64,000 nucleotides of DNA from a virus (lineage: Duplodnaviria; Heunggongvirae; Uroviricota; Caudoviricetes). A program made the position numbers and the translations under genes. The notes beneath the pieces are model-generated. The model saw only the letters and a program-made list of their open reading frames with translations. It was not told where the DNA came from and ran no database searches. Of this stretch, positions 11,080-13,091 are shown one piece after another; the stretch's first letter is position 1, and every line of letters begins with the position of its first letter. The stretch is from the IMG/VR virus record IMGVR_UViG_644736364_000008. The stretch is one strand, 5' to 3'.

Positions 11080-11084
11080 TTAAT

Positions 11085-11105
11085 AACCACCTCTATGAGG
11101 TGGTT
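11085..11105. terminator. Hairpin between the convergent Q and cargo genes
   Basis: Inverted repeat aaccacctc-tat-gaggtggtt. Confidence 0.45.
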
Positions 11106-11126
11106 AACAAGAATAAACCTAATTAA

Positions 11127-12536
11127 TTACTCATCTACTCTGATTTTTTGTTTTTTATTATTTTGAGTTAAGACATTTATGGTAATAGATGTATACGGAT
11201 GAAAGTCAGGCACTATACTTTTAACCTCTCCATTTTCAAGAAAATGATGTGCTATTGAAGGAAATAAATCAGGATCTACAGGATATTTAGCATTAGGATT
11301 ATGATACATATTTAAACCTTCTGCCCATGTTTCTGTAATATCGCCTTCTTTCACTTCAAAACTAAATGCTGCTGGATATAATGCCTCTGGGTCATGATCA
11401 TGGCAGTAACCACTCCTAAATAATCTAAGGTCACTTCTTCCAAAACCAGCCAGTTTTCCCATCCGATTAAACTTCGATATAGTACCACTATTAGAACTAA
11501 GGACGGCCGAAATATTTTCAGACTCATCCAAGAAGAAAAAGCCTGAAGGAATTTCCTTTTTCTCAAATTGATGCGATATAATTTTCTTAGTTGCTAAACT
11601 GTAACATCCATCTTCAGATTTAACATGCTCATAGCGAATACCATAAAGATACTGCCAAAGTGCACTATGGGACCAAATCATAGAGTTTGGTTCATGAAAA
11701 TCAGCAATTGCGAAAATTAAAGGATTCCCCTTAACATGTTCTAGATCCCAGTATCGAGTTTTCTTTTTCAGTTTAGAATAGAGAGAACTTCCAAATTTAA
11801 TCGGCATATAATTCTCTATTTTCTCTAGCAATTCTTCCTTACTTTTAGGTTCAGATAGCATTTCAGATGATTGATTAATATCATTCCCTGTTGGATTAAC
11901 CGTTACAGCTTCAATGCAAATAGTATTACCATACTTACGTGCCACATAATCAGGGGCATTAAACTGCCTATCTAGCCAAAAGTGTTCCTCTCGTAAATAT
12001 GCGAAAAGATATAACTCCCATAGCCGGGCATCAAAACCTGTTGTCTGAAACTGCTCTATAAAATTCCCGTCGACATCCTCAAAATGATTCATCATTTCCT
12101 TGATTATCCCTGTTGCAGGCGACCAGTTCGCATATTTACCAAATAATGAAAAATGATGATGAAGTTTATCTGGTGTAACTATAGGTGTGAATAAATCCAT
12201 TGCTTTATAAGTTTCATCACCTTGTGGAAATACTTTTACGTTTAATTTAGTATGCTTCCGCATTAATTTCTTTAGTTTTGCTCGTGCAGAATTCATTTCT
12301 GAAACACTAGTAAATAGGTCAATACATCTATATCTCCCACTTAAGTCTCTTGCTAAAACAATACCGCTATAATCTTCATCGATTTGATCCAATAATAGTG
12401 CCCCTAGCAGGAACTCTCTCGGACTACAGTACCACTCAAACTCATAGCCTAAAAGTTCAGTATTTGGCATTCTGGTCCAATCAACAAAAGCATTAAACCT
12501 CTCTTTACTCATTTTTTTTATATCAAGAAAAGACAT
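11127..12536 (-). CDS. AT-rich cargo protein of unknown function (469 aa) between portal Q and cos
   Basis: Long uninterrupted ORF, strongly AT-rich relative to flanking phage genes, convergent with Q; no motif I can name. Confidence 0.8.
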   Translation of the reverse strand: MSFLDIKKMSKERFNAFVDWTRMPNTELLGYEFEWYCSPREFLLGALLLDQIDEDYSGIVLARDLSGRYRCIDLFTSVSEMNSARAKLKKLMRKHTKLNVKVFPQGDETYKAMDLFTPIVTPDKLHHHFSLFGKYANWSPATGIIKEMMNHFEDVDGNFIEQFQTTGFDARLWELYLFAYLREEHFWLDRQFNAPDYVARKYGNTICIEAVTVNPTGNDINQSSEMLSEPKSKEELLEKIENYMPIKFGSSLYSKLKKKTRYWDLEHVKGNPLIFAIADFHEPNSMIWSHSALWQYLYGIRYEHVKSEDGCYSLATKKIISHQFEKKEIPSGFFFLDESENISAVLSSNSGTISKFNRMGKLAGFGRSDLRLFRSGYCHDHDPEALYPAAFSFEVKEGDITETWAEGLNMYHNPNAKYPVDPDLFPSIAHHFLENGEVKSIVPDFHPYTSITINVLTQNNKKQKIRVDE

Positions 12537-12629
12537 CTTTCTACCTCATCACGAAAAAATATTTTTTCCTAAAAAGACTTAAGTTAGCTTAATCTATTGA
12601 TAAAAAAAAGCTAAGTAACGACCAAATAC

Positions 12630-12662
12630 GCGCGCTCGTATCCCCGCCACGCCTGCCCGCTT
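12630..12662. other. Putative cos (cohesive end) region
   Basis: GC-rich block whose reverse complement GGCGTGGCGGGGA resembles the P2/186 19-nt cohesive end as I recall it; position fits. Confidence 0.3.
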
Positions 12663-12696
12663 TATGTAGTGGTTTTCATGCACCTGCATGATCTAC

Positions 12697-12723
12697 GCAA
12701 AAGCCCGCCAGTTCTGGCGGGCC
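12697..12723 (-). terminator. Rho-independent terminator of the SOS-regulated small-gene operon
   Basis: On the minus strand gcccgccag-aact-ctggcgggc followed by TTTT. Confidence 0.5.
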
Positions 12724-12857
12724 TTAGCAAAAACGATCCTCAAACGATCATGCGATCTCATGCGGCATAGACATGCACTACAGAGCTAACGCCTCGCAAG
12801 GGCTCGTTGTTCAACCTTGCTGACGCCAGAAGCAAGTTCAGACGCCAGCAACGTTTC

Positions 12858-13091
12858 TTAATGCAGCCAGCTGTCGTCTTCCCACACCTTCTGCATAATT
12901 TTCATCACTTGTTTTCTTTCTTCGTCCAGTTGCAGTCCGGTTAGTTCCACACCGTTAGAGCTACCTTTGCGAATGCGAATTACCGTTTTGGGATACAGGG
13001 GGCGCAGATTGCGGTAAAGCTCGGATTCAAGGGCGTCCAGGGTAGACTGGCTAATCTTCTGCTCTTTATCGATCATTATTTCAATGCGCAT
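12858..13091 (-). CDS. DinI-like protein (77 aa; start at MRIEIM)
   Basis: MRIEIMIDKEQ...LDALESEL...VIRIRKGS... matches the DinI fold signature; SD gaggtg upstream. Confidence 0.7.
   Translation of the reverse strand: MRIEIMIDKEQKISQSTLDALESELYRNLRPLYPKTVIRIRKGSSNGVELTGLQLDEERKQVMKIMQKVWEDDSWLH

Follow-up and report, generated by a model that had tools for sequence, protein, structure and literature searches.

PD-T7-1 is one of the 21 defence systems recovered by functional selection in Escherichia coli isolates: a single gene from strain ECOR46 (RCQ85672.1; an open reading frame (ORF) of 1351 nucleotides (nt)), labelled ‘Nuclease’ and protecting against T-even phages more strongly than against T7 (Vassallo et al., 2022). 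The PD-T7-1 gene of strain NILS69, when placed in K-12, protects against a Teseptimavirus and shrinks T7 plaques (NILS69 paper, 2025). One review files PD-T7-1 under restriction-modification (RM), and our literature search returned no mechanistic study of either PD-T7-1 or the related PD-T7-5. The cos-proximal interval between gpA and gpQ of P2-like prophages is known as a major defence hotspot (Vassallo et al., 2022; Rousset et al., 2022), with a cargo that also includes non-defence genes such as partition systems and toxins. Here we analyse a 64,000-nt stretch of viral DNA (IMG/VR record IMGVR_UViG_644736364_000008, Caudoviricetes; the window in what follows), in which this interval holds a gene for a protein of 469 amino acids (aa) (11127..12536, minus strand, ATG start in the ORF list). 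The protein is RefSeq WP_000008839.1, named ‘hypothetical protein’ there, and WP_000008839 itself already stands in the published table of hotspot arrangements, again as ‘hypothetical’ (Rousset et al., 2022). We conclude that it is probably a single-gene anti-phage protein of the PD-T7-1 family, carried by a P2/186-like E. coli prophage as lysogenic-conversion cargo (a ‘moron’) in the gpA-cos-gpQ diversity hotspot.

The cargo protein matches the PADLOC model for PD-T7-1 (PDLC04073) over its full length (E = 1.3e-196, 651.7 bits, residues 7-457 against positions 2-449 of a profile of 452) and the model for PD-T7-5 (PDLC04110) in part (E = 1.4e-56, residues 113-436); no other PADLOC model matches. 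It also falls into PHROG 8571, a family of unknown function (E = 5e-152), while Pfam gives no match and NCBIfam nothing but a meaningless match of 11 bits. Judged from these profile scores, the protein is almost certainly a member of the PD-T7-1 family, and we consider it probable that the window allele itself confers phage defence. The reading is backed by the family membership, the prophage and hotspot context, the stand-alone character of the gene and its three-part architecture, all of them documented here. A first-pass annotation, made from the letters alone, had proposed an uncharacterised anti-phage protein and had recommended a sensitive profile search. That search, together with the documented hotspot, diverged alleles in the same slot and relatives in islands of the DISARM and RM types, bears out the anti-phage guess. 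The adjective has to be dropped: the PD-T7-1 family was validated experimentally in 2022 and again in 2025, and defence-annotation models would call the gene automatically. This is a gene of an already catalogued and validated defence family in an already described hotspot, and not a new system.

Other identities were tried and rejected. The protein is not of the OLD family, to which P2 Old belongs: examined for an N-terminal ABC-type ATPase with a Walker A motif and for a Toprim nuclease domain, it has no matching Pfam, PADLOC or NCBIfam model and no Walker A, an absence remarked on in the first pass and borne out by inspecting the translation. An RM-type system with a partner methylase was also rejected, the island containing no methyltransferase; a Dam-like gene does occur at 15881-16798, but as part of the conserved 186-like backbone, and an Erwinia prophage has it as well. 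Many database records of homologues (e.g., P0075, P0137, KY653118.1) bear the name ‘glycosaminoglycan attachment (site) protein’. We reject this name, for which Pfam and NCBIfam give no support and which looks like a propagated annotation artefact.

The window allele occurs in 24 of 5426 complete E. coli genomes, all copies being at least 99.6% identical, and a ‘distant’ blastn search of E. coli, aimed at divergent alleles, returned only these 24 near-identical copies. A second PD-T7-1 clade, of exactly 449 aa and contained in one 90% cluster with 528 members, is commoner (201 of the 5426 genomes) and 33% identical to the window protein. The PADLOC PD-T7-1 model scores the window clade (~650 bits) above the 449-aa clade (~520 bits), for which reason we do not consider family membership to be in doubt. 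Because the 1351-nt ORF of ECOR46 fits 449 aa and not 469 aa, the validated ECOR46 protein probably belongs to the 449-aa clade and would then be ~33% identical to the window protein; RCQ85672.1 is not among the cluster members listed, and how close the window protein is to the tested ones is inferred. The uropathogenic E. coli (UPEC) strain NILS69, of group B2, has both PD-T7-1 and PD-T4-3 (NILS69 paper). It may carry the window allele itself, since the window too has both systems. With PD-T7-1 of ECOR46 the window protein has in common the format of a single gene of ~450-470 aa, the three-part architecture, the same invariant residues and the carriage on prophages or in defence islands, and the published ‘nuclease’ motif (HHpred residues 177-219) is equivalent to residues 174-211 of the window protein. 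They differ in length (~449 aa for the ECOR46 ORF versus 469 aa) and in the frequency of their clades (201 versus the rarer 24 of 5426).

Over the window the DNA is chromosomal E. coli sequence that agrees with strain MS7163 at 100% identity. In RefSeq the cargo is surrounded by genes typical of a P2/186-like prophage, namely those for the GPO scaffold, terminase, portal, DinI-like protein, replication protein A, Dam-like methylase, CII, CI and integrase. The portal gene Q (10042..11079, plus strand; RefSeq ‘phage portal protein’, 84% identical to the portal of an Erwinia prophage) is the conserved anchor of the hotspot, and converges with the cargo ORF across a spacer of 47 nt. As first noticed, an AT-rich ORF of 469 aa lies between the portal gene and cos, at 11127-12536: its content of guanine and cytosine (GC) is 35%, against 50.7% for the prophage segment minus the island, and 300-nt windows drop from 52-61% GC in the adjacent structural genes (7000-10900) to 30-37% over 11050-12549. 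The AT-rich island (10981..12628, strand not assigned), delimited by the GC drop at the left and by backbone homology at the right, holds this single ORF between Q and cos. Its left edge falls within the last ~33 codons of Q, where GC is 0.15-0.25 from ~10981, and at the right it stops 6 nt short of the cos core, with P2-like backbone homology back at 12629. Two metagenomic viral contigs, L025 (4185-5864) and L026, overlap the window only at 10837-12536, that is, in the 3' end of Q and the cargo gene, and in them the shared segment adjoins a 205-aa chimeric portal remnant. This restricted overlap is why the 3' end of the portal gene seems, on sequence comparison, to be the recombination junction of the cargo module and to travel along with it.

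The first-pass annotation had placed the gene at the old/tin position of P2, and this is correct as far as the shared gpA-gpQ interval is concerned. The cargo gene and P2 Old/Tin have a common hotspot and the common logic of a prophage excluding rival phages, but old/tin lie on the gpA side of cos and the cargo gene lies on the gpQ side, and there is no sequence or domain relationship between the proteins. The records of P2 and 186 start at cos, with the portal stop ~170-190 base pairs (bp) away and only a terminator in the gap; it is because the cos-to-Q gap of P2 is so short (~170 bp, terminator only) that its old/tin are found on the gpA side. At least one part of 11080-12860 is common to 1276 complete E. 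coli genomes and the cargo gene is present in only 24, which indicates turnover of cargo at the hotspot. The flank shared by the 1276 genomes is mostly the cos/DinI segment (12629-12860), as judged from the homology resuming at 12629.

Relatives occupy the same slot in other phages, so that the co-occurrence at the Q-cos locus that had been suggested as a check is indeed observed. Half of the viral contigs with relatives (12 of 24) have the gene between gpA and gpQ, eight of these alleles being identical, three 72-73% identical and one, in a more distant P2-like phage, 48% identical; a homologue in Erwinia billingiae (74% identity) sits in the same slot next to the portal of a 186-like prophage. 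The 449-aa clade is found also in a lambdoid phage, a Morganella phage and a Yersinia P2-like phage, where the gene is flanked by those for tail fibre assembly and the tail sheath, apparently the Z/fun hotspot. Outside such settings, homologues of 59% and 52% identity lie 3-20 nt 3' of a pair of genes for an SNF2 helicase and an MmeI-type methyltransferase in DISARM-like islands (L006 10001-11446 and L014 7001-8461). In L006 the homologue is followed by HATPase_c, a 1335-aa protein, MZB/DUF1998 and PLD genes, and is a defence gene nested in a DISARM class-1-like operon. A Burkholderia relative adjoins type I RM genes, and a Klebsiella relative adjoins a P4-type primase in a satellite-like element. 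Since the neighbours are wholly different across the eight contexts sampled, the family appears to be a stand-alone single-gene system with no obligate partner.

The alignment-based AlphaFold2 model, a confident one (predicted local distance difference test (pLDDT) 89.8; predicted template modelling score (pTM) 0.90), consists of an accessory alpha+beta domain (residues ~1-110), a central alpha-beta-beta-beta-alpha-beta unit (~125-300) and a beta-rich C-terminal part. The restriction-endonuclease-like centre and the beta-rich part together form a conserved core module (residues ~113-460; 11157..12200, minus strand) within which the PD-T7-5 match (113-436) falls. PD-T7-5 (E. coli UMB0934; Vassallo et al., 2022) shares this core and the weak Hjc/PDDEXK pattern in HHpred, but is core-only (~350-390 aa), without the ~110-aa accessory domain. 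In the model the central unit shows the alpha-beta-beta-beta-alpha-beta topology of restriction-endonuclease-like folds, and the putative catalytic segment comprises E174 in a helix, P195-D196 in one strand and E209-A210-V211 in another (11910..12017, minus strand), a PD-(D/E)xK-like triad lacking the canonical lysine. None of the three acids E174, D196 and E209 varies in the 69 close or the 21 highly diverged sequences compared. The polar residues that stay unchanged in every architecture (N-terminal, permuted, core-only or TPR-fused) are D156, Q164, R171, E174, D196, E209, K255, H322, K355, R358, E402 and N413.

Comparisons with known nucleases gave weaker results. A sequence-profile search of the PDB returned no match, Foldseek of the model against the PDB gave nothing below E = 0.3 and no full-length match, and Pfam run over the 69 homologues found no nuclease family. 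Direct hhalign comparison of the family with Pfu Hjc (sequence checked against 1gef) was not significant (E = 0.2); in the alignment D196 falls on D33 of Hjc and E209 on E46, two catalytic residues of that enzyme. The nearest structural neighbours of the core are nonetheless Holliday-junction resolvases. Archaeal Hjc and other minimal PD-(D/E)xK nucleases (the XisH-like 2okf, EC869 CdiA-CT) have in common with it the alpha-beta-beta-beta-alpha-beta core and the E...D...E acids with an identical D-to-E spacing of 13 residues, and the ‘CIE’ strand of Pfu Hjc is identical to that of the window protein. In layout the cargo protein resembles nuclease-fold effectors, most of them single-gene systems, that are fused to non-catalytic domains and have no methyltransferase partner, without detectable sequence similarity to them. 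The published HHpred nuclease match has a probability of 80% over 43 columns (Vassallo et al., 2022). The earlier remark that the protein shows no obvious nuclease signature thus holds for profile searches, none of which gave a significant match to a known nuclease family, and fails for the degenerate PD-(D/E)xK core (E174...P195-D196...E209-A-V211) that is present. As the sequence-level matches are weak, the conservation is the stronger argument for a nuclease.

The accessory domain (residues ~1-110; 12207..12536, minus strand), modelled with four strands and two helices, is a separable module and a putative sensor or regulator; the PD-T7-5 match begins outside it, at residue 113. An exhaustive profile search yielded 3041 cluster representatives of the family. 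In the 150 best representatives the domain is N-terminal in 96, C-terminal in 23 as the result of a circular permutation, and absent in 31. The domain is ~100 aa long and ends ...VFPQ; the permuted proteins include P0194, P0207, P0229, P0237, P0250, P0264 and P0286. A sensing or gating role for the accessory domain is plausible. One further relative, P0199 (671 aa), has a C-terminal extension that by eye resembles TPR repeats.

We propose that the protein would be made in the lysogen from its own signals, with an upstream terminator shielding it from the early operon, and that on infection by a competing phage the core, as a metal-dependent nuclease, would attack phage nucleic acid, DNA being the likeliest target. 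The missing canonical lysine could be supplied by the invariant K255 or by K355/R358, and the accessory domain and the beta-rich C-terminal part would serve sensing, gating or substrate choice. That the mechanism is nucleolytic, through E174, D196 and E209, seems to us about evenly balanced, and the same even chance is given to a metal-dependent nuclease whose active site is non-canonical and probably composite; we go no higher, given the missing lysine and scores none of which is decisive. As a specific guess, the substrate could be branched or replicating phage DNA, given the Hjc-type neighbours and that T-even and T7-like phages are the ones best countered by the validated relatives. Carried further, the window protein would represent a functionally distinct sister lineage of PD-T7-1: a structure-specific nuclease with a composite site (E174/D196/E209 with K255, K355, R358, E402 and N413) that cuts branched or replicating phage DNA, as opposed to a restriction enzyme recognising a sequence or a modification, and is gated by the permutable domain of ~100 aa. 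We hold this to be rather unlikely; if true, it would constitute a principle of self/non-self discrimination that is yet to be demonstrated for single-gene PD-(D/E)xK defence systems.

Several observations weigh against an active, nucleolytic defence protein in this prophage. In all sequences examined the position of the (D/E)xK lysine, residue 211, is occupied by V, T or S and never by K; the invariant K255 is a candidate for a relocated lysine. With a strong terminator on its DinI side the cargo gene probably needs its own promoter in 12537-12628, but a sigma-70 consensus scan found no promoter candidate upstream of it, with counts not above those of shuffled sequence, and for this reason expression of the cargo in the lysogen is an assumption. 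Defence was seen for other alleles, the window allele being only ~33% identical to the probably validated 449-aa clade. Deletion of PD-T7-1 from native NILS69 brought no change for the 10 infecting phages tested (NILS69 paper). The gene is also dispensable, as IS1 splits it in two of the 24 genomes (strains 33-6, NZ_CP050031.1, and 58-3, NZ_CP050036.1).

The same evidence can be arranged differently. The core might be a latent toxin resembling the DNase/tRNase CdiA-CT, held inactive by the accessory domain until a phage trigger, whereupon the cell dies or arrests. Such abortive infection appears doubtful to us, since 7 of the 11 nuclease-like systems in the source study of PD-T7-1 gave direct immunity, and the core-only relatives (31 of 150) are awkward for an obligatory auto-inhibitor. 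The lysine that is missing in all members, together with similarity scores to real nucleases that are all marginal, would also suit a catalytically dead endonuclease-like fold that defends by binding, for instance if it sequestered a phage protein or the ends or junctions of phage DNA. Relocation of the lysine is well documented among PD-(D/E)xK enzymes, however, and three acids in canonical positions that remain strictly invariant over more than 20 very diverged architectures, along with K255, K355, R358, E402 and N413, form a pattern like that of an active site, which makes a dead fold improbable.

A role outside defence is harder still to reconcile with the distribution of the gene. That Hjc-type resolvases are the closest fold could point to a DNA-metabolism enzyme of the prophage itself, such as a junction resolvase, and the uninformative RefSeq name and the partition systems and toxins elsewhere in the hotspot leave room for an unrelated fitness or virulence moron. 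Yet the gene is absent from P2, from 186 and from ~98% of the E. coli loci sharing its flanks, so that the phage cycle can do without it; homologues were functionally selected for phage resistance; relatives are found away from any phage, within DISARM or RM islands; and the ‘glycosaminoglycan’ name finds no support in Pfam or NCBIfam. We regard a non-defence function as very improbable, and retain the PD-T7-1 defence protein as the preferred explanation.

For annotation, this means that the gene should read PD-T7-1 family instead of ‘hypothetical protein’. New here are the rarer 469-aa clade, the position on the Q side of cos, the model with its set of residues and the permutation of the accessory domain. 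Together PD-T7-1 and PD-T7-5 form a widespread group (~3000 clusters at 50% identity), without a Pfam model or a published mechanism, for which the conserved residues, the limits of the domains and their circular permutation offer concrete targets for mutagenesis and biochemistry.

The cos core lies at 12635..12653 on the minus strand, as the counterpart of the 19-nt cohesive end. Read on that strand it is GGCGTGGCGGGGATACGAG, and its leading 13 of 13 nt are identical to the annotated 19-nt cos of phage 186, which places on firm ground the cos-like sequence that had been pointed out at ~12630-12662. The hairpin across which Q and the cargo gene had been described as converging is likewise real: a perfect 10-bp hairpin lies in the 47-nt spacer between the two stop codons (11084..11106, arms 11084-11093/11097-11106, strand not assigned), with a free energy (dG) of -14.7 kcal/mol and z-scores of -5.0 and -4.2 on the two strands, none of 200 shuffled sequences being equally stable. 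No similarity to the tQ and tW terminators of P2/186 was found for it; it is a probable bidirectional terminator in place of the tQ/tW terminator of P2/186. On the other side of the gene, an intrinsic-terminator hairpin (12697..12728, minus strand; dG = -25.1 kcal/mol, z = -5.0, followed by CUUUUGC) stands 3' of the DinI-like gene and just upstream of cos, and probably insulates the cargo gene from the phage early operon. A Shine-Dalgarno sequence GAGG (12544..12547, minus strand) can be read 7 nt upstream of the ATG. An Rfam scan of 10500-13500 gave a single sub-threshold chance match (IS009, 23 bits where the gathering score is 117). The DinI-like gene itself (12858..13091, minus strand; Pfam DinI, 6.6e-23, and RefSeq) lies within the hotspot interval on the gpA side of cos.

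Replication gene A (13444-15884, minus strand) is broken into ORFs of 695 aa (13797-15884, minus strand) and 118 aa (13444-13800, minus strand), and is a frameshifted pseudogene in RefSeq MS7163. The prophage is probably replication-defective while retaining its defence cargo. Further defence genes lie in the vicinity. Between baseplate gene V and tail-completion gene S, 561-2261 (plus strand) encodes a 566-aa AIPR/AbiU-like protein (Pfam AIPR, 1.6e-25; PADLOC AbiU, 1.7e-24); this is apparently the Z/fun position, the second defence hotspot of P2, which would give the prophage two defence cargos. At 22555-23343 (plus strand) a 262-aa protein has a DpnII/MboI-type restriction-endonuclease domain (Pfam, 9.5e-49; PADLOC Aga_Helical-REase, 1e-26), with no methyltransferase annotated adjacent to it. 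A full-length homologue of PD-T4-3, a LEM-3-like GIY-YIG protein of 257 aa (PADLOC, 7.4e-137), is encoded at 23935-24708 (minus strand), ~11 kilobases (kb) from the cargo gene and ~3.3 kb past the prophage integrase. With the AbiU/AIPR-like gene and PD-T4-3 in the same stretch of 25 kb, the locus is a further case of a P2-like prophage arming its host.

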